Source: a virus (taxonomy: Duplodnaviria > Heunggongvirae > Uroviricota > Caudoviricetes). From it: a stretch of DNA of 13,801 bases. The translations under genes and the position numbers were made by a program. Positions 3,070-13,595 of this stretch are shown piece by piece (within the stretch, counting starts at the first letter, position 1; every line of letters starts with the position of its first letter). The stretch is from IMG/VR virus record IMGVR_UViG_2534681759_000013; one strand, written 5' to 3'. The notes beneath the pieces are model-generated. The model was not told where the DNA came from and did no database searches. It saw nothing but the letters and a program-made list of their open reading frames with translations.

Positions 3070-3372
3070 ATGAAATTTGTAAATATACGGTCATCCGAGT
3101 TGCCTGAAATAGATACCTTTGTAAAAGAATGTATCAACCAAGGACAATGGACTCTTTTCAAGGCCGAGAAGGGTGCAGTTAATGATAATAAAGTTGCTTT
3201 TTTTCTAAAGGCTGGCAAAGATTTCTTTGCATTAAATAACAGAGGAAGTGTTATCTCTGTATTTCAATCATTAGATTATAATCTTGAAATGAATGAGGTA
3301 ATTCATTTTTCAGATATTCCTAAACCTGAATCGTTGAGCAATATTGCTAGCTTAGGATTTGCTAGAGTTTAA
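3070..3372 (+). CDS. hypothetical small protein (100 aa), first gene of AT-rich cargo cassette 1
   Basis: Track ORF with ATG at 3070 preceded by GGGG about 10 nt upstream. AT-rich codon usage (many K/N/I/F) distinct from the backbone. An 18-bp gap separates it from the next gene on the same strand. No recognisable motif. Confidence 0.55.
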   Translation: MKFVNIRSSELPEIDTFVKECINQGQWTLFKAEKGAVNDNKVAFFLKAGKDFFALNNRGSVISVFQSLDYNLEMNEVIHFSDIPKPESLSNIASLGFARV

Positions 3373-3390
3373 TATATAAGGATATGTACG

Positions 3391-4281
3391 ATGGGATTAA
3401 TATCTGGAAATACACATTGGGTATTATTTTTACCTTGTGAGCACCAACCAGAAGATCGCCATGTTCAAGATTTAGTTCATGGCGTCTTTTGCTTAGAATC
3501 CTCAGGTATACAGCCATCTAATATTAGCATATATATTGATGGCCAAAATAGAGCCAACTTTAATAAGTTAATTTCGATTGCAACCCAACATAATTATACT
3601 ATCAAGCCTACATCTGAATTTTTCACCGACTGCGATACAAATAGTTATGAAAATCTAGTTATGTTTGTGACCGGACACGGAAGTATGAATGGTTTGGACT
3701 CTGCGCCGATCATAACCCCATACCGTTTATTGGACAGGTTAAAAAACACTCCTGTTCTCAAGCAAGCAATCGTTTATCTTGGTCAATGTTTCGCTGGTGT
3801 TTTCAACTACTTACCTGCTGGGCAGCGTAAGAGAGGTGAAGATGCCGACCCCGATGTCATTCTTATCGGGGCTACGAGTCTTCATGAAAGTTTGAGTAAT
3901 CCAACAACGGAAAATATTAATGGTATAGATTTTCCTTGGGTTGCAAATCAATTTTTATATCATGTATTTAAGTGGATATCATCCCCGAATGATATCGATG
4001 GGGATGGAAAACATACAGTAATTGACTCTTATAAGTATGCTGGAATCTCATCAAACATGACCAATCGTAGAATGAAGATAGGTTCTTTTGTAGCTTCGGT
4101 AGACTTGCATGAGCAATGGAATACTGCAAAAAAAGATCATGAAGCTAACTTGGCTGATCCACAAAAACTACTCCGTTATAGAGCATTAGATCAGCAATAC
4201 TATGAAAAACTGAACATTAACTATATTCATCAAGAGTGCTGGATATTAAATTCTGTACCTGCACAATCTGTTGAATTCTAA
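3391..4281 (+). CDS. caspase-like (clan CD) cysteine peptidase-like protein with EF-hand-like Ca-binding loop
   Basis: 296 aa. A hydrophobic strand followed by His-Gly (LVMFVTGHGS, H96; codon 3676..3678) and a second hydrophobic strand followed by Cys (AIVYLGQCFAG, C133; codon 3787..3789) match the His/Cys dyad layout of caspase/metacaspase/legumain-type peptidases. DIDGDGKHTVID (residues 201-212, nt 3991..4026) fits the DxDxDGxhxxxD/E EF-hand loop pattern. AAGGA RBS 8-12 nt upstream of the ATG. Confidence 0.6.
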   Translation: MGLISGNTHWVLFLPCEHQPEDRHVQDLVHGVFCLESSGIQPSNISIYIDGQNRANFNKLISIATQHNYTIKPTSEFFTDCDTNSYENLVMFVTGHGSMNGLDSAPIITPYRLLDRLKNTPVLKQAIVYLGQCFAGVFNYLPAGQRKRGEDADPDVILIGATSLHESLSNPTTENINGIDFPWVANQFLYHVFKWISSPNDIDGDGKHTVIDSYKYAGISSNMTNRRMKIGSFVASVDLHEQWNTAKKDHEANLADPQKLLRYRALDQQYYEKLNINYIHQECWILNSVPAQSVEF

Positions 4282-4285
4282 TCCT

Positions 4286-4453
4286 TTACTTTTTTGAATA
4301 GATTGCTGCAAGTGCCGTTTTGAGGTCGTAATTTCGGCACTTGCAACTGCAACCAGAAATAGGGCGAACGTTTGACAAACGTTTAGCTATAGTCTGCCGA
4401 TGAAATCCAGTCACTTCCGCCAACTCACTTAAATTTAGAACTATCTTTTTCAT
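4286..4453 (-). CDS. short Nu1-like HTH DNA-binding protein (55 aa); apparently a truncated small-terminase gene
   Basis: Not in the ORF track (below its length cut-off); found by hand translation: MKKIVLNLSELAEVTGFHRQTIAKRLSNVRPISGCSCKCRNYDLKTALAAIYSKK. AAGGG SD 5-6 nt upstream of ATG 4453..4451, TAA at 4288..4286. It aligns across its whole length to the N-terminal HTH region of the 285..770 protein. It lies downstream of the cos-like site, and its stop is 4 bp from the convergent stop of the 3391..4281 gene. Confidence 0.5.
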   Translation of the reverse strand: MKKIVLNLSELAEVTGFHRQTIAKRLSNVRPISGCSCKCRNYDLKTALAAIYSKK

Positions 4454-4582
4454 CATAATTACCCTTCAGATGTCGAACAAATAACATACAATCCATCATC
4501 TTTTCCACTTTTATAAAGTTTTACCTAATAAAATTCAGTTAGTTAGCGAATGATGATGATGTCTATAAAATTCAAAAACTAG

Positions 4583-4670: not shown

Positions 4671-6587
4671 TCATGCCGCCCCGCTCGACTTCACCATGCC
4701 CCGATAATCCAGCGCCGCCACGCCAGCATCGATACGCACCTTCCATGCAATACCGTCCACAGTGAAGCCCTCCTGCTGTTCCAGATACGGCACGTCCATT
4801 CCATCCAGATATGCCACCTCGATAGTGTCGGTGCCTTGCGCTGCAGTGACGTACCACTCCTTGTTGTTGGCCTTGTCCAGTCGCGGCTCAACCACTACCT
4901 GCGCCATATCCTTCACGACGTTGATAATGCCTGGGTTCTGGTTCAGCATACCGTTCTGGTCTACCGGGAACAGCGAAGATGATGACAGCACAGCTCGATT
5001 GGCTGCGCCTTCCAGCGCGGCAGGTACAAGGATATAGGCTGGGATAACATTAATAGGATCGCCGTTCGCATCCTCCTGCAGACGCATAGCCTTACGGGCC
5101 TCATTGAGTCCGTCTGTATCCATCCCTTTAGCGATGAGGTTTTTATGGTCGGCGTGGAACAACGCTTTACCATCTGTGAATTTGCTGTTGGCGGTCAGTT
5201 GCAGGTAGACCAGATTGCCAACCGTTCGTGCGGCGGCACGCCCCATTGCCTGTGGAATGGTCGTGAGCTGGCTCAGGTCATCGTTGATAATGGCCTGGCG
5301 TGTAACAGAGAAGATGTTTCCATAGGTGGCCAGCGCGATCGGCACACCGCTGTCGCTGGTAGTGACATATTTGTATTCAGCACCTTCCGGGACTTTATCC
5401 AGTTCTGAAAAACCATTCAGACCGACACGTTTAGCCTCATGGAAATTCGACAGAGAACCGGTCTTTGTCCACTGCTGGAAAGTTTCCCCGCTGTTCTGCC
5501 AGCCAGTCAGCACCGACTTTTCAGCACCACCAGCCAGGATATGAGAGAAATCACTGGTGCTGTGCGTAAATGCCAGGTTCACGATCTGCGAGCGATTCCC
5601 GAAACCACTGACGCTGATACCACGATCCACCAGCGAAGCCTGCGCCATTTCAAACAGACTCATCATGGCGTAAGGGTTTCCCCTTTCGGCGCGTTCGTGA
5701 CCCAGACGGGCAAAAAGCCCCTGGCGGATAGCATCGCCGGTAATGTTGCCGTTACCTGCGTAAATGTGCGCGTTACTGGTTTTATCCGATGGGGTCGAGG
5801 TCTTACCCAGTGCCGTCAGCAGCATGTCTTTTGCTTTTTCAGGCGTGCAATCCACATCCTCCAGACACTGCATCTTGAGAGAATCATGCTTGCCGCCGAA
5901 CATGGCAAACAGATCCTTAATCTCGTTGATGCGGTTCTGTTCCGGTACAGCGCTACTGGTGGAACCTTTCGGGCTGGTGATCATCCCTTTAATTTCTTTT
6001 GGCATATGCTCAAAATCCTCAATTCGTTTTGACTCAATACAGGCCATTGCCCTGACGGCGGGTAACAATTCGTCAGCAAAACCCTGCGCTACACATTCGC
6101 GGCCATCCATCCATGTTTCATCCTCCAGCATTTCCGCCAGTGATTCGGCTGATTTACCCGTTTTGCGTGCATATGCCGGGATCAAGACACTTTCGACTTT
6201 ATCCAGAAGTTCGGCGTAGTCGCGCATGTCGTTGGCGTTCCCACCAGAGATTCCCCACGGTTTGTGAATCATCATGAGTGCGTTTTCGGGCATAACGATA
6301 CGGTCGCCAGCCATTGCAATAACTGACGCCATAGACGCGGCGAGACCGTCGATCTGCACTGTAATTTTTGCCGGGTGTTTATTCAGAAGGTTATAGATAG
6401 CGATGCCGTCAAAAACATCGCCACCGGGTGAATGAATGTGCAGGCTGATATGGGAGATATCGCCTAGGGCTTTCAGGTCTTCGGAGAACTGCTGCGCCGT
6501 AATACCCCAGCCGCCGATCTCTTCGTAGATGCTGATATTGGCGCTGGTGCCATCGCTGGCCGCTTTGATGGTGTACCAGCCTTTCAT
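4671..6587 (-). CDS. ClpP-like prohead protease fused to major capsid protein (Mu gpT-like)
   Basis: 638-aa ORF. The N-terminal ~180 aa carry ClpP/S49-type motifs (GLAASMASVIAMAGD with Ser85; MMIHKPWGISGG with His108). The C-terminal ~450 aa resemble Mu-like major head subunits as I recall them. The start ATG (6587..6585) overlaps the stop of the upstream small gene (ATGA). Confidence 0.85.
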   Translation of the reverse strand: MKGWYTIKAASDGTSANISIYEEIGGWGITAQQFSEDLKALGDISHISLHIHSPGGDVFDGIAIYNLLNKHPAKITVQIDGLAASMASVIAMAGDRIVMPENALMMIHKPWGISGGNANDMRDYAELLDKVESVLIPAYARKTGKSAESLAEMLEDETWMDGRECVAQGFADELLPAVRAMACIESKRIEDFEHMPKEIKGMITSPKGSTSSAVPEQNRINEIKDLFAMFGGKHDSLKMQCLEDVDCTPEKAKDMLLTALGKTSTPSDKTSNAHIYAGNGNITGDAIRQGLFARLGHERAERGNPYAMMSLFEMAQASLVDRGISVSGFGNRSQIVNLAFTHSTSDFSHILAGGAEKSVLTGWQNSGETFQQWTKTGSLSNFHEAKRVGLNGFSELDKVPEGAEYKYVTTSDSGVPIALATYGNIFSVTRQAIINDDLSQLTTIPQAMGRAAARTVGNLVYLQLTANSKFTDGKALFHADHKNLIAKGMDTDGLNEARKAMRLQEDANGDPINVIPAYILVPAALEGAANRAVLSSSSLFPVDQNGMLNQNPGIINVVKDMAQVVVEPRLDKANNKEWYVTAAQGTDTIEVAYLDGMDVPYLEQQEGFTVDGIAWKVRIDAGVAALDYRGMVKSSGAA

Positions 6588-6941: not shown

Positions 6942-7655
6942 ATGGATCTCACTCGTAATGACGAACTCCTTTTGAATGATGCAGCTAGACGCTCATTTCG
7001 GGATATGGCAGACCAGGATTATCTCTCAGCTCGTCTGTGTTATAAGCACAAATTGAATTTTCAATTTTTATGGCTTTCGCAACAAGCCGTAGAGAAATAT
7101 ATTAAAGCGATTTTACTTTATAATAGAGTTCCAGTATTAAAATTAAATCACAATTTAAACAAAGGGCTGGCAAAGATTAAAGAAATCCCATATCTTGAAT
7201 TAGACCTAGATGTAAAAAGTGAGCGATTCATAGATTATCTCAATGAGCAGGGCCCAAATAGATACTTCCAAAACACTATGTATACCGAAGGCTTTGAAAT
7301 TATAACCTTGGATAGAACCATCTGGGAATTAAGAAGATACTGCAAGCCACTAAACTACTCAATTACTAACCCAAAAGGTGAAGTGATAGAAATGTTAGAA
7401 CATGAATTGAGTAGCATAAAAAATTCGAAGTCGAGGCCTTATCATACGTTCAAACTATTTGGAGGTTACTTAGAAAAAAGATTAAAAGATAATAAATTCA
7501 ATCAGGGCGACATACTTACATGGAAAAATTTATTTTTTGGAAGAAATAAAAAAAATGCAATTAGAATTGGAAGATCAATGCATGTAACTCATCCAACTCA
7601 TTATATGTACCCAAATGCAACGGAAATGCTCAGTCGTTTCTTTAAAATAAAATAA
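6942..7655 (+). CDS. hypothetical protein (237 aa), AT-rich cargo cassette 2; possible HEPN-like all-alpha N-terminus (weak)
   Basis: Track ORF with AAAGG RBS, strongly AT-rich, on the strand opposite the backbone and divergent from the capsid operon. The N-terminal segment (QQAVEKYIKAILLYNRVPVLKLNHNLNKG) has an R-x7-H arrangement loosely reminiscent of the HEPN Rx4-6H motif, but this is not convincing without a profile search. Confidence 0.55.
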   Translation: MDLTRNDELLLNDAARRSFRDMADQDYLSARLCYKHKLNFQFLWLSQQAVEKYIKAILLYNRVPVLKLNHNLNKGLAKIKEIPYLELDLDVKSERFIDYLNEQGPNRYFQNTMYTEGFEIITLDRTIWELRRYCKPLNYSITNPKGEVIEMLEHELSSIKNSKSRPYHTFKLFGGYLEKRLKDNKFNQGDILTWKNLFFGRNKKNAIRIGRSMHVTHPTHYMYPNATEMLSRFFKIK

Positions 7656-7964: not shown

Positions 7965-9374
7965 TTAAATTATCGTGATATCTCCTGAATCATCGATAAA
8001 GATAATATTCTCCCTAACGAGTTTATCAAGCCAGCGTTTAAAACCTTTGCGGCCGTTCTCTCCAAACAGAGTGGTAATATCATCACGTATAACAGAGACA
8101 TTACACGGTTCACCTTTGGCTTTTCGGCTCCGGATTGACTGCCAGAGTGCAGCGTGGTTCCCAGTCAGGTGCTTGATATCAGCAAGTTCCGGATCAGGTT
8201 CTCGTGCCTCTCGTGGCAGGTCCTGCACCACCAGCGACGAAATAAGCTCACCATCACGATCTGTGAACAATTCGATCGGACGCAGATCGAATGCGGCCTG
8301 TTTCGGCTCCTCCGCATCTTTCATCTTCGTACAGGTCAGGATTATCGCCCCACCATCCCCCTCGCGCCGGACATTGAACTCTGCATCGAGCGCAGCCCTG
8401 AAAGCACTGGAACCACGTGCGCCTTTGGTATCGTCTTTTCCTGAATGATGCACCACCAGCAACGTGGCGCCAGTCTCACGCTTGATGACGTCGCAGCCTT
8501 CAATAAACGCCCCCATGTCACGAGCATCGTTTTCATCGTTACCACCAAAGCACCGCGCTAGAGTATCTATGACAATCAGGCGAACCGGCTGCCCCGTTTT
8601 GGACTTAACGTCACGCGCAGCTTTGATCATCTCCTGCATTTCCTCACGGCGAACCGGGAAAACCGGACGGTTTACCAGATACAGATTATTTAGTTTCACA
8701 CCATGTTTTTTCTCCCACGCCTTTATTCGCCGCGGAACGCCAATACCACCTTCACCTACTACGTACATCACAGCGCCGGCTGATACCGACTTCCCCGCCC
8801 ACTTCATCCCGGCTGCAACGTGACAAGCCCAGGACACCACCAGAAAACTTTTATACGAACCGCTCGGGCCGTAGATACTGCTCAGGCTGTTAGCGGGAAG
8901 ATAACTTTTTAACGTGTAATCCTGCTCCTGATCGTACCCATCAGAGCCCACGCTTAAAGGAAGGCTGTGCCGCAGTGACTCCTCTCGCACAGAGACTTCA
9001 ACCTGTTCACGCAGACGAGAAAGATATTCCCTCCAGTCCTCAGGCTCATGGTCGGGGATTCCTTTATACAATTTGGCATCCTGCACGCCAGCCAGCGCCA
9101 GCTTTTCAGCAATGTTATTAATCTGGATAGGCTTTATATTCCCTGCCAGGTAAATCCGCACGGCACGACGGCCATCATCCACAATGCGCAGGTTATCCAG
9201 CTCTGCCAGTTGTTTTGGCCCAAGGTAAACAGGAGGAGTGGTATCTTCGGCAATCTGTTTACCAAGCCCCTCTTCCCAACCCTTCGCATGGGCGTATGCT
9301 TCTGACCCGGCAAAAATAACTGCCTCCGTGAATTTTTCTTTTGGCAGGTGTTTCAGATTCGGTGCGTTTTTCAT
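7965..9374 (-). CDS. replication initiator / helicase-type RecA-fold P-loop ATPase (RepA/DnaB-like) with an unknown N-terminal domain
   Basis: 469-aa ORF. Walker A (IYGPSGSYKSF), Walker B-like (RLIVIDTLARCFGG) and a downstream LLVVHHSGKDDTKGARGSSAF segment are typical of AAA_25/RepA-like replicative ATPases found in PICI and P4-like primase-helicase genes. Its start overlaps the stop of the upstream gene. Confidence 0.85.
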   Translation of the reverse strand: MKNAPNLKHLPKEKFTEAVIFAGSEAYAHAKGWEEGLGKQIAEDTTPPVYLGPKQLAELDNLRIVDDGRRAVRIYLAGNIKPIQINNIAEKLALAGVQDAKLYKGIPDHEPEDWREYLSRLREQVEVSVREESLRHSLPLSVGSDGYDQEQDYTLKSYLPANSLSSIYGPSGSYKSFLVVSWACHVAAGMKWAGKSVSAGAVMYVVGEGGIGVPRRIKAWEKKHGVKLNNLYLVNRPVFPVRREEMQEMIKAARDVKSKTGQPVRLIVIDTLARCFGGNDENDARDMGAFIEGCDVIKRETGATLLVVHHSGKDDTKGARGSSAFRAALDAEFNVRREGDGGAIILTCTKMKDAEEPKQAAFDLRPIELFTDRDGELISSLVVQDLPREAREPDPELADIKHLTGNHAALWQSIRSRKAKGEPCNVSVIRDDITTLFGENGRKGFKRWLDKLVRENIIFIDDSGDITII

Positions 9375-9694
9375 TTCAGCCCCTTATCCCATCCGTCAGA
9401 TCCAACACTCAGCGGCAGAGAAGAGCGCAGAGCAGCGATTTTTTTACGCACGTTTTCTTTTACGGTCTCCTGCCACTCCCTGCTTTCCTCAGGGAGATAA
9501 ATAAATTCTTTTCGGAACCGGTACTCAGAAAAAATACACTCATGTGAATACCCATCCCGGACATACGTAATACGGCTATCCGTTATGCATGTGACAGTAA
9601 TTTTTTCTCCGCGAGAATCTTTCCAGCGACTGTTAAGCTCGATTTTTGGTTGAGCGATGCCCTCAGGCTGAACCTGATTGAATTTTTTAATCAT
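9371..9694 (-). CDS. hypothetical protein (107 aa); C-terminus shares the SLPLSVGSDG linker motif with the replication ATPase
   Basis: Track ORF with AAGGA SD 8 nt upstream of ATG 9694. The stop is coupled to the ATPase start. The C-terminal ~30 aa are similar to residues ~110-145 of the 7965..9374 protein. Confidence 0.55.
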   Translation of the reverse strand: MIKKFNQVQPEGIAQPKIELNSRWKDSRGEKITVTCITDSRITYVRDGYSHECIFSEYRFRKEFIYLPEESREWQETVKENVRKKIAALRSSLPLSVGSDGWDKGLK

Positions 9695-9698
9695 GAAT

Positions 9699-9878
9699 TT
9701 ATTCCTTGTCGGTAGCCGTTAAACCGTATGCTTCAGCAGCCTGACGAACTGCCTGGATAAAACCTTCCGGTGTGGCCACGATTTCGTCCGGACGAAGGCG
9801 GCGCTCTGTAACCTGACCGTTTTTAACCGTCACCAGTACGCGGATCTCGTAATCAGCAGGTAAGGCGGAGTTATCCAT
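9699..9878 (-). CDS. hypothetical small protein (59 aa)
   Basis: Internal ATG ([15 protein letters not shown]...) of track ORF 9699..10004. It overlaps the stop of the upstream gene (caTGGAtaa arrangement) and ends 4 nt before the next start, so it is tightly packed in the operon. Confidence 0.4.
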
Positions 9879-10158
9879 GGCGCACCTCCATTGGCACAGC
9901 TTCATTGCTGTAAGGATCGCTACCCAAGATGCTCCATAGGGTGCGATGTTCAGGATCCATAAACGACACTGAGAGCGGGCTTTCTGTTCGGATTTTGGCG
10001 GCAAAGGTCAAGTCCCAGCCGCAGAACTTTGCACGGGCAGTATCTTCAGTGTCTGCAATGGTGCGCAGAACTATCGGGAGACAAGAGTGACCTCGCGGCG
10101 TGCCAAGGAATAGCCATGTAAATTTTGGGCGAGTTTGGGTATGCTGTTGATCAGCCAT
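9871..10158 (-). CDS. hypothetical protein (95 aa), first gene of the replication operon
   Basis: Internal ATG at 10158 ([13 protein letters not shown]...) of track ORF 9871..10215, with GAGGT SD about 7 nt upstream. Divergent from the RHH gene across an operator-like intergenic region. Confidence 0.45.
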
Positions 10159-10251
10159 AACTGTTACCTCAACTAACGGTTTGTGGTTAGACGTCCCGTG
10201 AGTGGTTCCAAGCACTTCCGGGACGTTGCTTTTTTCACGTCAAGCGTGATA

Positions 10252-10289
10252 ACGTACGTAATAGCAACATCCTATGAGGTTACGTACGT
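10252..10289. promoter_or_regulatory. paired ACGTACGT palindromes, candidate operator in the divergent promoter region
   Basis: The palindromic octamer ACGTACGT occurs at 10252..10259 and 10282..10289 (30 bp centre to centre), between the divergently oriented 10158 start (minus) and 10292 start (plus). The second copy sits just upstream of the RHH gene ATG. Confidence 0.45.
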
Positions 10290-10291
10290 AC

Positions 10292-10483
10292 ATGTCAACA
10301 ATAAAACGAGATAAAACACCCAAAGGAGAGGGCTTGTCTCCGACATTCCAAATCCGAATAAGTCCTGAATTGCGCCAGCAGATGAATGAAGCTGCTGAGC
10401 GTGAGGGAGTAAGTCTTGGTAATTGGCTTAAAGGTCTGGCTAGAAATGAACTTATTAAGCAAGGAATTGAACCTAAAGGTTAG
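10292..10483 (+). CDS. ribbon-helix-helix (Arc/CopG-like) DNA-binding protein, candidate repressor
   Basis: Second ATG of track ORF 10274..10483 (the first ATG lies inside the operator palindrome). 63 aa with a beta-strand then two helices (TFQIRISPEL / RQQMNEAAEREG / VSLGNWLKGLARNEL), typical of RHH regulators. GAGGT about 11 nt upstream. Confidence 0.6.
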   Translation: MSTIKRDKTPKGEGLSPTFQIRISPELRQQMNEAAEREGVSLGNWLKGLARNELIKQGIEPKG

Positions 10484-10536
10484 TTTTCACAAGCACTCTT
10501 TGATTTTTTCAGTAAAAATTAAATTAAGGAAATTCT

Positions 10537-11247
10537 ATGGATGATTTATATACACCATCTGAATATTTTATGTTCGTAGAGAAATTTGATCATTACTTCC
10601 CACGAAAAAGCCCTTTTAACTCATTATTATTCGAGTTCAATTATAGATTAGAAGATATAGTTGTTTTTCATCGCTTTGTTATCAACACCTATTCAAAAAA
10701 TAAAAAAGCAATTGATGTACAATATAATAAATTTAATTTTCTTGATGATAAACAAAAAAATTCCCTTTCTGATGACGAGTATGAAGCGTATCAACTCAGG
10801 TTTGCAAGGCATATGGAATACATTAACCATCAAACTGATTTGAATGAAAAAGCGTCTTACATTGCTAACGATAGTGTCGTTATAAACTTATGGGCCATGA
10901 ATGAACAATATATGACTAGAGGATTGGCCAACCTAATATCTCAAAAAGAAAATAAAAATTTAAATGAAGTTAAAACGCCTTACAAATGGGATACAATCAA
11001 AAGTAAATTCCTGTCATATGGAATCAACTTTGAGACATTGCCATCTTATGATGACATTAATGAATGTAGAGTACTGAATAATAAAATAAAACATCTGAAC
11101 ATAGTAGATTCTGGTTTAGAAGTTTTCCCTCCCTTCAAAGGTAAGCTTAACGAATCACTTACTGGCATGGCCTTTCCTCTTCAAAAATATATCATAGGCT
11201 CTCATCACTTTATAGGAATGCTATTAGAAGAGTGCTCATTAAAATAA
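10537..11247 (+). CDS. hypothetical protein (236 aa), AT-rich cargo cassette 3, downstream of the RHH gene
   Basis: Track ORF with AAGGAA RBS 6-12 nt upstream, strongly AT-rich, 53 bp after the RHH stop on the same strand. No recognisable catalytic motif. Confidence 0.6.
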   Translation: MDDLYTPSEYFMFVEKFDHYFPRKSPFNSLLFEFNYRLEDIVVFHRFVINTYSKNKKAIDVQYNKFNFLDDKQKNSLSDDEYEAYQLRFARHMEYINHQTDLNEKASYIANDSVVINLWAMNEQYMTRGLANLISQKENKNLNEVKTPYKWDTIKSKFLSYGINFETLPSYDDINECRVLNNKIKHLNIVDSGLEVFPPFKGKLNESLTGMAFPLQKYIIGSHHFIGMLLEECSLK

Positions 11248-11251
11248 ACGC

Positions 11252-11288
11252 ATGGCAACGTATAATTTATCGCTTAATACGTTGCCAT
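11252..11288. terminator. hairpin between convergent genes (candidate bidirectional terminator)
   Basis: Perfect 11-bp inverted repeat ATGGCAACGTA / TACGTTGCCAT (11252..11262 and 11278..11288) with a 15-nt loop. It is 5 nt after the 10537..11247 stop and 6 nt after the alpA stop, with U-rich tracts on both transcribed strands. Confidence 0.5.
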
Positions 11289-11293
11289 ATCTC

Positions 11294-11530
11294 TCATTTA
11301 TTTTTATCGAACCAATCTCCTTTAATCCAAGCTTGCATCTCTGAGAGCCGGTAAGCAACTGCTGACGGCCCAATTTTGATTCGCTTAGGAAATTTTCCTT
11401 CCTGTTCCATGCGCCAGCGCGTTGAGTTAGACAACGTAGTCATAGCCCGGCATTCAGGTTCGCGAATCATTCTGTCAAGGTCAGGCATGTACTGGAGATC
11501 TTCTTTTTTCACAACGGATAACATAGCCAT
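11294..11530 (-). CDS. alpA: AlpA-family phage regulatory protein (excisionase-like HTH)
   Basis: The track ORF starts at GTG 11539; the first ATG is at 11530 (MAMLSVVKKE...) with AAGGAG 8 nt upstream. The segment AMTTLSNSTRWRMEQEGKFPKRIKIGPSAVAYRLSEMQAWI matches the AlpA/Xis-like HTH pattern. It lies immediately downstream of the integrase gene. Confidence 0.7.
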   Translation of the reverse strand: MAMLSVVKKEDLQYMPDLDRMIREPECRAMTTLSNSTRWRMEQEGKFPKRIKIGPSAVAYRLSEMQAWIKGDWFDKNK

Positions 11531-11531
11531 A

Positions 11532-12767
11532 TCAGGCACTCCTTTTCTTAATTACTTTTACTGTATTTTCTTCACCCACCAGCCCATCAAGGTAGTCAAC
11601 CCATCGGTCCAGTGCTTCTTGCTTTTGAGGGATATACTTGCTGCGGTTATAGACTCCGGCCACGCCCTTTATGGTATGCCCCAGCAGCTGCTCTACGACC
11701 ATAAAATCAACGCCCATATCGTTAAGGCTTGTCGAGAACGTTCGTCTCAAATCATGTAATGACCAGCGTTTTTCATGTTTCAGAGAGATAAAGTTTGTGC
11801 ATCCCATCGTACTGACGGTTGAATCAGATTTCAGTTCGCCAAATATGTAGCCTCTCCTTTTAGTCTCTTCGTGCAGGTTTACGATCCACTGGCGCATTTT
11901 TTGAGGAACGGGGCGAATAATTTCTTCGCCGTTTTTACTGTGCTCTTTAGGTACTGTCCAAATCCACTTATCGAAATCCCACTCATCCCATGTAGATAAA
12001 CGCGCCTCACTCAGCCTGCAGCCAAACACGAGACACAAAATCGCCATCCTTTTTTTGTAATTCATTACACGGGTTTTGCCTTTACCATGAAAGTACACTC
12101 CCCACAGATCGGCGACGTAGCTTTCCTCAAGTAGCCGCTCTCTCTTGTTCTGATACTTACCGATATCACCAGGGCTCAAATCATCAAGCACATTGCACCG
12201 CACATACTGGCGCACCCGGCAGTATTTGAAGATCTGCTTTAACTCAATCAGCATTGCAGCAGACTGAACCGGCGCGATTTTCTTTATGCGGTCGAAGCAC
12301 TTGATCCAGTCTGACAGACCGCATTTCTCGACAGGAAACCCGCCGATGTAGGGAAAAATGTATCTCTCATAACGGCGATAGAGCCGTAAAGTCTCTTTGC
12401 GCTTTTCCCTGGCATAGTTATCAAACCAGTAATCGATAGCGTTCTTCACAGTTACTGGAGTGAACAGGTTCTCTTTGGTGAGTTTGTTCTCTATTCGTGG
12501 GTCGAGTCCCTGAGATAGCCATGCCCGGCACTCGTCCCTTTTCTCTCTGGCCTGTTTAAGGGTCATATCTGGATACTTGCCTAACGTCATCCAGACGGGG
12601 GCGCTTTGTCGGCCGGAATGTCTGAAGAAATACACAAAGCTCACAGTGCCACTAACGCTCACTCTGACAGACAGTCCACGACCATCTGCCACCATCTTTT
12701 GACGCGGCTGGGGTTTACCATGTAAGGCCTTTAACGCCTTGTCGCTTAACTTGTTCTCGCCCGCCAT
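11532..12767 (-). CDS. int: tyrosine recombinase / phage integrase, P4-type
   Basis: 411-aa ORF with an N-terminal arm-binding-type region (GRGLSVRVSVSGTVSFVYFFR) and C-terminal catalytic signatures (HDLRRTFSTSL ... LLGHT ... YNRSKY). GAGG SD 5-8 nt upstream of the ATG. Confidence 0.9.
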   Translation of the reverse strand: MAGENKLSDKALKALHGKPQPRQKMVADGRGLSVRVSVSGTVSFVYFFRHSGRQSAPVWMTLGKYPDMTLKQAREKRDECRAWLSQGLDPRIENKLTKENLFTPVTVKNAIDYWFDNYAREKRKETLRLYRRYERYIFPYIGGFPVEKCGLSDWIKCFDRIKKIAPVQSAAMLIELKQIFKYCRVRQYVRCNVLDDLSPGDIGKYQNKRERLLEESYVADLWGVYFHGKGKTRVMNYKKRMAILCLVFGCRLSEARLSTWDEWDFDKWIWTVPKEHSKNGEEIIRPVPQKMRQWIVNLHEETKRRGYIFGELKSDSTVSTMGCTNFISLKHEKRWSLHDLRRTFSTSLNDMGVDFMVVEQLLGHTIKGVAGVYNRSKYIPQKQEALDRWVDYLDGLVGEENTVKVIKKRSA

Positions 12768-12801: not shown

Positions 12802-12944
12802 ACTTAACTGCAACGCCGAAAAACAGTAGAAAAGCAATGCAAACAACACCTCTTCTTTCGTAAGCGCATCATTTAAACCGTCTTTCGCCTCCCTTTCCTG
12901 TTTCCGATACTAATGTCCATTTTCGCAGTAAAAGGACATTTAAG

Positions 12945-13595
12945 ATGAATGCACGAAAGGCGGTACTGGCAGATAACCCGGAATTGATCCTGCGTGTGCT
13001 ACAGCTGAGATTTGACGAGTCACTGTCGTACCCGCGCATTTCTGCGCAGACCGGTGTCAGCAAAACCGCCATTTTTTCTCTGGTGAGGCGATTTCACCAG
13101 ATATTCGCTGACTGGCCTCTTTCCGGTGAATATTCCTGCATGCAACTGGCCCGGGCTCTTTTCCCTGGGCGATATCCTTCAGCCCCGACAGTGACTCAGC
13201 CTGTGAAAACAGAGAAAATCCGCCGGAACCGATTTTCACCGGAGTTTAAATGGAGGCTTGTTCAGCAAACTCTTTTACCCGGTGCCTGTGTCGCACAAAT
13301 AGCTCGCGAGAACGGAATCAACGATAACCTGCTCTTTAACTGGCGGCATCTCTGGCGTAACGGCGGCCTGCAGCCGCCCGGCGAACATGAAACATCGCTA
13401 CTTCCCGTGACGTTAACGCCGGAGCCGGATAATAAAATCCCGGCACCAGTGCAGATACCTGAACAGATAAATACACTGCCAGACAGTCTGTGCTGCGAGC
13501 TGGTTCTGCCGGCCGGAACTCTCAGGCTGAAAGGTGAACTGACACCGGCGTTATTACAGACACTTATCCGCGAAATGAAAGGGAGCAGCCACTGA
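12945..13595 (+). CDS. tnpA: IS66-family accessory protein TnpA (orf1), with an N-terminal extension or alternative start
   Basis: The central segment RRNRFSPEFKWRLVQQTLLPGACVAQIARENGINDNLLFNWRHLWRNG matches the conserved IS66 Orf1 HTH core as I remember it. The 216-aa ORF is longer than I would expect for this family, so the true start may be internal. Confidence 0.7.
   Translation: MNARKAVLADNPELILRVLQLRFDESLSYPRISAQTGVSKTAIFSLVRRFHQIFADWPLSGEYSCMQLARALFPGRYPSAPTVTQPVKTEKIRRNRFSPEFKWRLVQQTLLPGACVAQIARENGINDNLLFNWRHLWRNGGLQPPGEHETSLLPVTLTPEPDNKIPAPVQIPEQINTLPDSLCCELVLPAGTLRLKGELTPALLQTLIREMKGSSH

Follow-up and report, generated by a model that had tools for sequence, protein, structure and literature searches.

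The region described here lies in a 13.8-kb window (13,801 nucleotides, the whole stretch of DNA that was analysed) and belongs to a PICI, a phage satellite, of the Gram-negative type in E. coli. This element is nested in the ClpP-capsid gene of a second PICI, the target of its integrase being the CLP_protease/capsid gene of the resident PICI adjoining tRNA-Ile. The configuration has already been published: in the passages of Mageeney et al. 2023 (PMC10111431) covered here, a helper-embedded PICI in a tRNA-Ile2 PICI matches the whole element, and those passages describe it without mention of the module that concerns us, a ribbon-helix-helix (RHH) gene followed by a 236-aa cargo gene. The features of the region are given below in window coordinates.

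9871-10158, minus strand: Icd-like gene that opens the leftward icd-DUF4222-RepA helicase operon (NCBIfam phage_ICD_like, 5.7e-16; RefSeq annotation)
10190-10236, plus strand: stem-loop followed by a T-rich tract, terminator-like (inverted repeat; -23.1 kcal/mol, z -3.2)
10226-10255, plus strand: putative rightward promoter of the RHH-cargo operon (by-eye reading of the sequence)
10252-10259, no strand: operator-like palindrome O1, ACGTACGT (sequence count, inverted repeat, alignment of relatives)
10269-10298, minus strand: predicted leftward sigma-70 promoter (promoter scan, 10 of 12 matches)
10282-10291, no strand: operator-like palindrome O2, the 10-mer ACGTACGTAC, between the RHH ribosome-binding site and ATG (same basis as O1)
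10292-10483, plus strand: 63-aa Arc-like RHH regulator, a backbone gene (Pfam, PHROG and PDB matches; conserved)
10484-10536, plus strand: intergenic spacer with ribosome-binding site AAGGAA at 10526-10531 (sequence; promoter and terminator scan)
10537-11247, plus strand: 236-aa AT-rich accessory gene; its predicted product is all-helical, HEPN-like in topology and from a family without annotation (open reading frame; model)
11062-11094, plus strand: codons of the motif E176-C-R178-V-L-N181-N182-K-I-K185-H186 (family alignment)
11252-11288, no strand: hairpin with a perfect 12-bp stem, arms 11252-11263 and 11277-11288 (inverted repeat and folding energy)
11294-11539, minus strand: alpA (Pfam Phage_AlpA, 3.8e-14)
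11532-12767, minus strand, as alpA: int (integrase domains found)

The first-pass annotation, made from the letters of this stretch, had placed a 63-aa ribbon-helix-helix gene here, and database comparison bore this out. The protein matched the Pfam HicB C-terminal RHH region (1.7e-5), PHROG 228, an Arc-like repressor (4.6e-5), and P22 Arc in the PDB (1b28, E 4e-4), with residues 11-58 lying on Arc residues 2-49 and the similarity extending across the beta-strand, helix A and helix B core, as in Arc/MetJ proteins. It ends five residues past the Arc-aligned region and has no C-terminal neutralising tail. The conserved start is the ATG at 10292, and RefSeq likewise annotates 63 aa; an alternative upstream ATG at 10274 is missing in some relatives. 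Among nine related elements, eight have the RHH protein at 70-100% identity and one has it at 41%, regardless of the gene that follows, and dN/dS was 0-0.11 where computable, which indicates strong purifying selection on this gene. RefSeq names the protein 'HicB family antitoxin' or 'YlcI/YnfO family'. We rejected an assignment to HicAB because the HicB match is limited to the RHH DNA-binding part of the model; RefSeq annotates no HicA in the element, and the 63-aa protein has neither an adjacent HicA nor the HicB N-terminal RNase-H-like domain. The database label should be corrected: this RHH protein is not a HicB antitoxin. In relatives, too, the gene is labelled only 'HicB' or 'YlcI/YnfO'.

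The AT-rich 236-aa reading frame reported behind the RHH gene is present at 10537-11247, with a GC content of 26-31% against 43-54% in the flanks. It ends, as had been noticed, at a hairpin common to alpA. This hairpin separates the stop codons of the two convergent genes, cargo (11247) and alpA (11294), folds with -16.1 kcal/mol on the plus strand and -22.9 kcal/mol on the minus strand (z -4.4 and -4.8), and is likely a bidirectional terminator of both. Since neither a terminator nor a promoter was called in the spacer at 10484-10536, the cargo gene is probably co-transcribed with the RHH gene. In other alleles the gap between the two genes is 24-27 bp, and the position of the cargo right behind the RHH gene resembles cI-rexAB, in keeping with the lambda-like placement first proposed.

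Comparison with relatives showed that the cargo is not a backbone gene. The slot behind the RHH gene is fixed and its occupants differ: a SWIM protein, reading frames of 41 or 58 aa, or no annotated plus-strand gene at all, and homology to a cargo-less relative ends with the stop codon of the RHH gene. The 236-aa gene is missing from most related satellites and was found in 9 of 5426 E. coli genomes (5 + 4); the family also occupies the same slot in satellites with different replication and capsid modules. A variably occupied slot in related islands together with foreign composition is what marks PICI cargo, and these observations support variable cargo at a fixed backbone slot. Known accessory or immune regions of PICIs lie at the 5' end, at the 3' end and beside pri (PMC11364771).

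A small RHH gene followed over a short gap by a larger gene is also the typical order of a type II toxin-antitoxin pair, which the first-pass annotation had offered as an alternative. The RHH protein would then be antitoxin and autorepressor and the 236-aa protein the toxin of an island-stabilisation or abortive-infection module; the RefSeq name and the Pfam HicB match are consistent with this, and HEPN-like proteins are often toxins (PMC3710099). If the two genes were obligate partners, however, they should occur and evolve together, and they did not. The RHH protein retains its 70-100% identity in elements with unrelated cargo or none. In a Klebsiella element it is 100% identical to that of the window (dN 0, dS 0.44) where the cargo is only 72% identical (dN 0.21, dS too high for the estimator), and the exact RHH protein occurs on 415 contigs versus 173 for the exact cargo protein. 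The RHH protein is moreover Arc-sized, aligns end to end with the 53-aa Arc and has no C-terminal toxin-binding extension, its HicB match stops at the DNA-binding part with no HicA annotated nearby, and no conserved partner gene was found in 28 distant loci of cargo homologues. We regard a toxin-antitoxin pair as highly improbable.

Upstream of the RHH gene, ACGTACGT occurs twice in the window (10252-10259 and 10282-10289) where 0.09 copies were expected, and one of 200 shuffles reached two. The two palindromes 30 bp apart that had been pointed out are therefore real as copies, but the second is really the 10-mer ACGTACGTAC, which abuts the RHH start codon, and the spacing is not general: it is 30 bp in 4 of 10 elements examined and 33 or 35 bp in the rest. 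O1 in the window is one ACGT unit shorter than in the copy of one complete E. coli genome, where it reads (ACGT)3. Palindromes of the (GT)ACGTAC(GT) type occupy -6 to -11 and -40 to -45 relative to the ATG in all but one of the nine related elements that were aligned, the exception having an inverted pair at the two corresponding places, and the sequence flanking the palindromes diverges among relatives. In several groups of relatives the palindromes vary together with the predicted recognition strand of the RHH protein: TFQIRI pairs with ACGTACGT, AFQIRI with GGTGTGTACC/GGTACACACA, and PFQFRL with TGTAATG..CATTACA. The 41%-identical RHH protein (strand KKNIRF) still has the GTACGTAC core, in the form GGTACGTACC. 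Where the predicted recognition strand is most divergent, the palindromes diverge as well.

Both palindromes coincide with predicted promoter elements. The leftward promoter consists of a -35 TTGACA (10298-10293) overlapping the RHH start codon, an 18-nt spacer containing O2, and a -10 TAGGAT (10274-10269), with O1 just downstream of the predicted leftward start; in relatives its hexamers are conserved or other -10-like hexamers stand in their place. On the opposite strand, a -35 TTGCTT (10226-10231) and a TG-extended -10 TGATAACGT (10247-10255) overlapping O1 would form the promoter of the RHH gene, and the TGATAA of this -10 is conserved in most relatives. The promoter scan made no call at 10226-10255, so the rightward promoter is putative. 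The divergent regulatory region initially described is thus a conserved RHH-palindrome module that faces the icd-DUF4222-RepA helicase operon, its sites overlapping a conserved predicted promoter toward that operon.

The palindromes might instead be sites for AlpA, integrase or a helper-phage protein, or simply slippage-prone (ACGT)n tracts, the RHH protein regulating something else or being a relic. AlpA is a known regulator of Gram-negative PICIs, and the tract length differs by one ACGT unit between near-identical copies. Against this, the sites hold their position beside the RHH gene in eight of nine relatives despite different alpA and int types, they vary where the RHH recognition strand varies most, and the RHH gene is strongly purified by selection; Arc-family proteins (Arc, Mnt, CopG) are known to bind short repeated or palindromic sites. 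We consider it quite unlikely that the palindromes are something other than RHH operators.

We infer that RHH dimers would bind the two (ACGT)n palindromes and repress the leftward promoter. With O2 in the spacer of the near-consensus promoter for the icd-like/DUF4222/RepA operon, and O1 both a short way past its start and across the -10 of the putative promoter of the RHH gene itself, the palindromes are positioned on both opposed promoters, and for this reason their occupancy would autoregulate the RHH operon and would silence the replication operon and its cell-division inhibitor in the resident state. Since the RHH protein is conserved, the palindromes are kept in position, and the sites lie within or just after a conserved predicted leftward promoter, a role as resident-state repressor of the icd-repA operon is plausible.

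Such a role would not simply follow from what is known of PICIs. The first-pass annotation had treated a divergently transcribed master repressor as established for PICI-type islands; this holds for Gram-positive PICIs (Stl/Rpr) and not for Gram-negative ones (PMC6092414, PMC11773190). For the latter, the global repressor was called 'unclear' in the founding paper (PMC6092414), and the activator AlpA is the accepted, experimentally supported master regulator, with no repressor demonstrated (PMC6092414; PMC11773190). Against that literature, a repressor role for the RHH protein is a new hypothesis rather than an expectation, and our literature search for RHH repressors in satellites, and for the accessions, returned no matches. 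The RHH protein is accordingly of interest as a candidate repressor for Gram-negative PICIs, its putative operators being placed on the replication operon's promoter. Its place resembles that of Stl/Rpr, with integration genes on one side and, divergent from it, the replication operon on the other; as a 63-aa Arc-like RHH protein it is probably unrelated to them. The module also resembles the arc-ant operon of P22 immI: Arc aligns along the whole RHH domain, each protein heads a short operon, the putative operators lie inside overlapping, opposed promoters, and autoregulation would be expected. The two differ in that Arc has one 21-bp operator with adjacent half-sites where the RHH gene has two putative palindromes 30-35 bp apart, in that arc is followed by an antirepressor gene and the RHH gene by variable cargo, and in that the opposed promoter here would drive a satellite replication operon.

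For the cargo protein, searches of Pfam, PADLOC, PHROG and NCBIfam gave no match, and PADLOC placed it in no known defence system at E up to 1. The statement that it carries no recognisable motif therefore held for family databases; it did not hold for the family alignment, where a nearly invariant E-x-R-x2-N-N-x2-K-H closes predicted helix 171-186 at its C-terminus. Across 75 diverse members N182, K185 and H186 are invariant and conservation is 90% or more at E123, E176, R178 and N181; in a set of 29 members E123 is invariant. The predicted structure (pLDDT 94.5) is an all-helical, four-helix model with HEPN topology. It matches the published helix order of HEPN proteins, in which an invariant acidic residue in H2 is followed by an insert and H3 ends in a conserved histidine (PMC3710099): Glu123 lies within predicted helix 79-137 (helix 2), and His186 is invariant at the end of helix 3. 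The canonical HEPN motif is Rx4-6H, the R being followed by a polar residue. In the cargo protein Asn182 is invariant, but Asn181, set off from the histidine by four residues, holds the canonical arginine position, so that the motif is Rx7H via Arg178 and falls outside Rx4-6H. HEPN families that lack the arginine and have other basic residues are known (PMC3710099).

Sequence comparison gave no corresponding similarity. Family scans of the 75 members likewise found nothing with the E cut-off raised as far as 10, Pfam HEPN models included, and sequence profiles of the family found no real match in the PDB. In hhalign comparisons neither the HEPN protein encoded in the window, nor a DUF4145 protein, nor RiboL-PSP HEPN, as a single protein or as an alignment, gave a significant match (probability 0.1 for the RiboL-PSP alignment, the only HEPN family compared profile-to-profile); one single-sequence run aligned NECRVLNNKIKH with MEIGELRNKLAH, also not significantly. 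Foldseek of the model against the PDB returned nothing below E 0.6; its single match among viral models, an uncharacterised Myoviridae protein (E 5e-3, TM about 0.5), is uninformative. On its predicted model the 236-aa protein is a candidate stand-alone HEPN-type protein that may act as a nuclease.

The cargo family comprises 103 clusters at 50% identity, spread sporadically across several phyla, and a profile search of a word-indexed database added almost no distant members. In cyanobacteria, Vibrio, Bradyrhizobium and Acinetobacter, distant homologues lie outside satellites, as single genes near housekeeping or defence genes. Their neighbours are mostly housekeeping genes, and some loci adjoin or sit inside defence operons: a weak homologue lies between HmaA and HmaB, and another adjoins a mad3/LmuB-like ATPase. 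A 236-aa gene on the opposite strand in another locus (L048) was tested and is not a homologue of the cargo.

This distribution bears on whether the cargo serves the satellite itself, as an anti-repressor-like, helper-sensing or helper-interference factor in the dynamic 'Bro zone' that separates alpA from the replication genes. The cargo slot matches a regulatory zone of variable content that PMC10111431 describes in Gram-negative PICIs. All Enterobacteriaceae contexts inspected (three homologue clusters and five E. coli genomes) are this satellite slot, and tblastn found only two distant homologues on enterobacterial or Acinetobacter plasmids (28-30% identical) and none in phages. The cargo shows no Bro-N, KilA-N or ANT similarity, however, and is transcribed opposite to the life-cycle operons; since most related satellites do without it, it is dispensable for the life cycle, and the single distant homologues beside housekeeping and defence genes lie outside satellites. 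A life-cycle function of the cargo thus appears unlikely.

A solo-HEPN-like role in anti-phage defence is our best inference for the cargo, and exclusion or abortive infection would be its likely form. We propose a two-layer explanation, to which we give an even chance of being correct: an RHH-operator switch carries a defence-like HEPN-type passenger. The cargo would be a gene gained by horizontal transfer, placed right behind the RHH stop codon and transcribed together with the RHH gene, and for that reason made while the satellite is quiescent. Its product would most likely be a nuclease that stays latent until phage infection activates it, leading to abortive infection or exclusion to the benefit of the satellite's host. 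In lambda cI-rexAB and other repressor-linked prophage 'morons', too, an accessory gene of foreign composition stands directly behind the resident-state regulator, a position from which moron and cargo alike would be expressed during quiescence. The lambda regulator is a proven immunity repressor and rexAB a two-component membrane system, whereas here a satellite RHH protein is the putative regulator and the cargo a single protein, predicted to be soluble and helical.

A precedent for such a gene in a prophage is HepS of Gifsy-1 (PMC13043305), a solo HEPN abortive-infection anticodon nuclease. Like HepS, the cargo protein stands alone with no partner gene, is under 250 aa, has a HEPN-type fold (by prediction) and occupies an accessory slot of a mobile element; HepS is constitutively expressed, as the cargo would be. 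The two have no detectable sequence relationship, and where HepS has a canonical R100-x4-H105, the cargo has Asn181 at the arginine position, with Arg178 and Lys185 conserved nearby. It differs also from HepT/MntA (HEPN-MNT): no MNT nucleotidyltransferase gene was detected beside the cargo homologues examined, and the cargo protein has some 100 residues more, two of its helices are very long, and its motif is non-canonical.

In its boldest form the proposal would make the RHH protein the missing resident-state repressor of a Gram-negative PICI sub-family, in control of a switch made of two opposed and overlapping promoters that silences icd-repA until AlpA-driven transcription overrides it, and the 236-aa protein the founder of a new family of solo HEPN-like abortive-infection nucleases in which Asn-Asn-x2-Lys-His and a displaced arginine replace Rx4-6H; we think this rather unlikely. 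The family, for which Pfam, PADLOC, PHROG and NCBIfam hold no model, may be a new single-gene defence family, and its slot is of a satellite accessory type from which new anti-phage systems have come time and again. Were it true that a HEPN-type fold here carries a non-canonical catalytic motif, the definition by which such nucleases are mined would become broader.

A C4-type RNA immunity reading of the element was rejected: Rfam had no match on the whole window, and so no C4/isrK-type immunity RNA was recognised. The stem-loop at 10190-10236 is conserved and belongs to the leader of the leftward operon, a little ahead of the putative RHH promoter. It shows compensatory changes at 5 of 11 pairs among 10 related elements, and its G-U pairs favour the plus strand.

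We mapped the genes of the element carrying the 63-aa ribbon-helix-helix (RHH) protein and the 236-aa protein encoded directly behind it, hereafter the cargo.

Genes of the element
11532-12767, minus strand: int
11294-11539, minus strand: alpA
10537-11247, plus strand: 236-aa cargo gene, between alpA and the icd-like gene
10292-10483, plus strand: 63-aa RHH gene, also between alpA and the icd-like gene
9871-10158, minus strand: icd-like gene, left of alpA
Minus strand, listed between the icd-like gene and the helicase: DUF4222 gene
7965-9374, minus strand: RepA-type helicase
4671-6587, minus strand: ClpP-protease/major-capsid fusion

Of 5426 complete E. coli genomes, 5 contain the region at 99.6-99.7% identity, and the annotated E. 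coli context places the insertion site of the satellite in the ClpP/capsid gene of another island, adjoining tRNA-Ile. The C-terminal part of this split gene, without its N-terminus, lies at 1028-2647 on the minus strand, and RefSeq places the N-terminal fragment just right of int (12869-13260); the fusion gene at 4671-6587 is an intact copy carried by the satellite besides the split resident one. Such a nesting, located at tRNA-Ile2 and using an attachment site in a CLP_protease gene, is already published as a 'helper-embedded PICI in a PICI' (PMC10111431). Backbone and nesting are therefore already known, and the analysis turned to the role of the plus-strand pair. Immediately beyond the island's int end, a 216-aa ORF (12945-13595, plus strand) contains an IS-type transposase HTH (HTH_Tnp_1, 9.6e-17).

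Every feature that the first-pass annotation had described for this pair was confirmed as present. The palindrome ACGTACGT occurs in the window only at 10252-10259 and 10282-10289 (0.09 expected), the second copy reaching up to the RHH start codon. The cargo gene is AT-rich (26-31% GC, versus 43-54% in the surroundings), and the hairpin common to cargo and alpA is a 12-bp perfect stem at 11252-11288, between their convergent stops, with folding energies of -16 kcal/mol on one strand and -23 kcal/mol on the other (z about -4.5). The 30-bp distance between the palindromes held in 4 of the 10 elements examined and is 33 or 35 bp elsewhere. Of nine related elements set beside the window, eight have (GT)ACGTAC(GT)-type palindromes, one placed at -6 to -11 and the other at -40 to -45 relative to the RHH start; in the remaining one, the E. 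coli locus L007, an inverted pair takes up those two places. The sequence between the sites diverges. The sites themselves differ where the predicted RHH recognition strand differs most, as listed below, and beside this pattern it appeared quite unlikely that the palindromes are bound by something other than the RHH protein.

Predicted recognition strands and their sites
TFQIRI: ACGTACGT
AFQIRI: GGTGTGTACC/GGTACACACA
PFQFRL (plasmid copy): TGTAATG..CATTACA
KKNIRF (41%-identical RHH): GTACGTAC core kept, as GGTACGTACC

The first palindrome is (ACGT)2 in the window (10252-10259) and (ACGT)3 in a complete E. coli genome copy (L001, 12103-12114) whose identity to the window across the 1151 bp compared is 99.7%, a one-unit difference that we read as a slippage variant inside a putative operator. 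A promoter scan called a leftward promoter with TTGACA (10298-10293), an 18-nt spacer and TAGGAT (10274-10269). The -35, which overlaps the RHH start codon, is conserved in relatives, and their -10 reads TAGCAT, TAACAT, TAGTAT or TATTAT instead; the second palindrome lies in the spacer and the first just past the predicted start. A candidate promoter for the RHH gene, read by eye, has a TG-extended -10 TGATAACGT (10247-10255) and a -35 TTGCTT (10226-10231), and overlaps the first palindrome. The palindromes thus appear to be conserved putative operators sited over promoters, a geometry that fits an autoregulated repressor also closing the icd-repA operon. This agrees in spirit with the earlier proposal of a 'master repressor'; the rule cited for it belongs to Gram-positive PICIs (phage satellite islands), whereas in Gram-negative PICIs AlpA, an activator, is named as master regulator and the global repressor is called 'unclear' (PMC6092414; PMC11773190). 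The stretch from the icd-like start to the RHH promoter also contains a conserved stem-loop with a T-rich tract behind it (10190-10236). Among 10 elements, 5 of its 11 pairs have changed in a compensatory way. Its G-U pairs fit the plus strand only, suggesting that it either terminates plus-strand transcription or forms the 3' end of a small antisense RNA against the icd leader; Rfam returned no match for it.

For the RHH protein, Pfam gave a match to the RHH part of its HicB model (1.7e-5), PHROG a match to an Arc-like family, and NCBIfam a score just under threshold for YlcI/YnfO. A profile of ten homologues matches P22 Arc in the PDB across the full domain (E 4e-4), aligning Thr18/Gln20/Arg22 with Arc Gln9/Asn11/Arg13 and leaving no C-terminal extension beyond the aligned domain. 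The RefSeq name 'HicB family antitoxin' was ruled out as a domain-level artefact, since the match is limited to the RHH part of that model. Among nine related satellites the RHH protein is 70-100% identical in eight and 41% identical in one, and the slot downstream holds the cargo family, a SWIM protein, 41- or 58-aa ORFs, or no plus-strand annotation; in a cargo-less relative, homology stops at the RHH stop codon. The claim that slot contents are variable rather than conserved backbone was borne out by this comparison.

The first-pass annotation had offered an antitoxin plus toxin pair as an alternative. If the two proteins were cognate partners, the RHH protein would not be expected beside other slot contents or none, nor to be identical in a Klebsiella element (dN 0, dS 0.44) whose cargo is 72% identical (dN 0.21, dS too high for the estimator). 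Exact RHH copies occur on 415 contigs and exact cargo copies on 173, and no neighbour was found common to thirty loci with distant cargo homologues (Vibrio, cyanobacteria, Bradyrhizobium, Acinetobacter, Psychrobacter, Planctomycetota and others). On these grounds a cognate relation is unlikely and a toxin-antitoxin pair very improbable; the comparisons identify the RHH protein as a predicted Arc-like backbone regulator, not an antitoxin. An E. coli plasmid (NZ_CP021681.1; L051, 2400-2820) carries a copy of the leader hairpin and of the divergent promoter region together with a 59-aa homologue of the RHH protein, with a different beta-strand and palindromes, upstream of a WYL/DUF1819/DUF1788 (BREX-type) operon. 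This is the one plasmid inspected; the same 80-bp leader is matched in about 30 other E. coli plasmids (~32 plasmid matches in all).

The cargo protein had no match in Pfam, PADLOC, PHROG or NCBIfam. A word-indexed database gave 14 close clusters, all enterobacterial where the source names an organism, and an exhaustive search gave 103 clusters at 50% identity. In enterobacterial contexts (three homologue clusters and five E. coli genomes) the family always occupies the same satellite slot, including in satellites with other replication or capsid modules (D5 primase; lambda gpE/gpD). Two alleles of the gene were found, together in 9 of 5426 E. coli genomes; the gene is under purifying selection (dN/dS 0.12 between two alleles). 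The family is missing from the 50,697 phage records searched and occurs on two plasmids. At L007-L010 (E. coli, around 8660-11030) the second allele is carried by satellites whose insertion site is the lambda-type major capsid gene E of a prophage and which bring their own gpE and gpD copies, the helper-embedded type described in PMC10111431. Neighbours of the distant homologues are mostly housekeeping genes, with some defence genes. One weak homologue (E 1e-4), in an Ignavibacteria genome (L044, 5731-6411), has an HmaA-like helicase gene on one side and an HmaB-like methylase gene on the other, with stop and start codons that overlap; another homologue follows a mad3/LmuB-like ATPase. A life-cycle or Bro-zone regulator would share this slot, but most related satellites are without the gene and the distant homologues lie outside satellites, which makes that role unlikely.

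An AlphaFold2 model of the cargo protein is all-helical and confident (pLDDT 94.5), with helices at 25-63, 79-137, 151-160, 171-186 and 215-235. As defined in PMC3710099, HEPN domains have two alpha-hairpins, with an insert separating helices 2 and 3; helix 2 bears an acidic residue, and helix 3 ends in the Rx4-6H motif. The model has the two hairpins, an insert (residues 138-170) and a conserved Glu123 in helix 2, invariant in one comparison of the family, and an invariant His186 ends helix 3. However, the conserved string E176-x-R178-x2-N181-N182-x2-K185-H186 is non-canonical, with Asn in the arginine position and Arg178 one turn earlier. All sequence-based tests of HEPN membership failed, and Foldseek, a search the first-pass annotation had proposed, returned no match for the model in the PDB. 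We therefore describe the protein as HEPN-like in predicted topology, not as a HEPN member; that it is a HEPN-type nuclease we hold tentatively, somewhat below an even chance.

We are highly confident that the pair combines a backbone regulator with variable cargo. While the satellite is resident, the RHH operon would be transcribed at an autoregulated level, RHH would hold the leftward operon closed, and the cargo protein would be made. Acting alone, the cargo would be a latent nuclease that infection triggers, for which HepS, a solo HEPN abortive-infection protein of Gifsy-1 (PMC13043305), sets the precedent. Each functional step is one that we infer, and for the whole, RHH switch and latent nuclease together, we regard the case as evenly balanced. 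The slot is consistent with known PICI accessory/immune regions (PMC11364771), and the cargo is probably defensive, an accessory gene linked to a satellite regulator. No description of the RHH role or the 236-aa family was found in the databases and literature searched; the first-pass finding is real and was partly well interpreted.

Other accessory genes were also seen in the window. A second opposite-strand gene (6942-7655, plus strand) adjoins the helicase/primase gene, a position that falls in the pri-adjacent accessory region reported for Tai systems (PMC11364771). Its 237-aa product matches Pfam HEPN (1.6e-5) and nothing in PADLOC, and Klebsiella relatives have a 237-aa gene in the same position. 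A two-gene plus-strand cassette at the 3' accessory end encodes proteins of 100 aa (3070-3372) and 296 aa (3391-4281); its neighbour is a truncated DUF1441 gene (4286-4456). Neither protein matched Pfam or PADLOC; the 296-aa protein has, by eye, a GHGS...GQCFAG His/Cys pattern reminiscent of caspase-like proteases.
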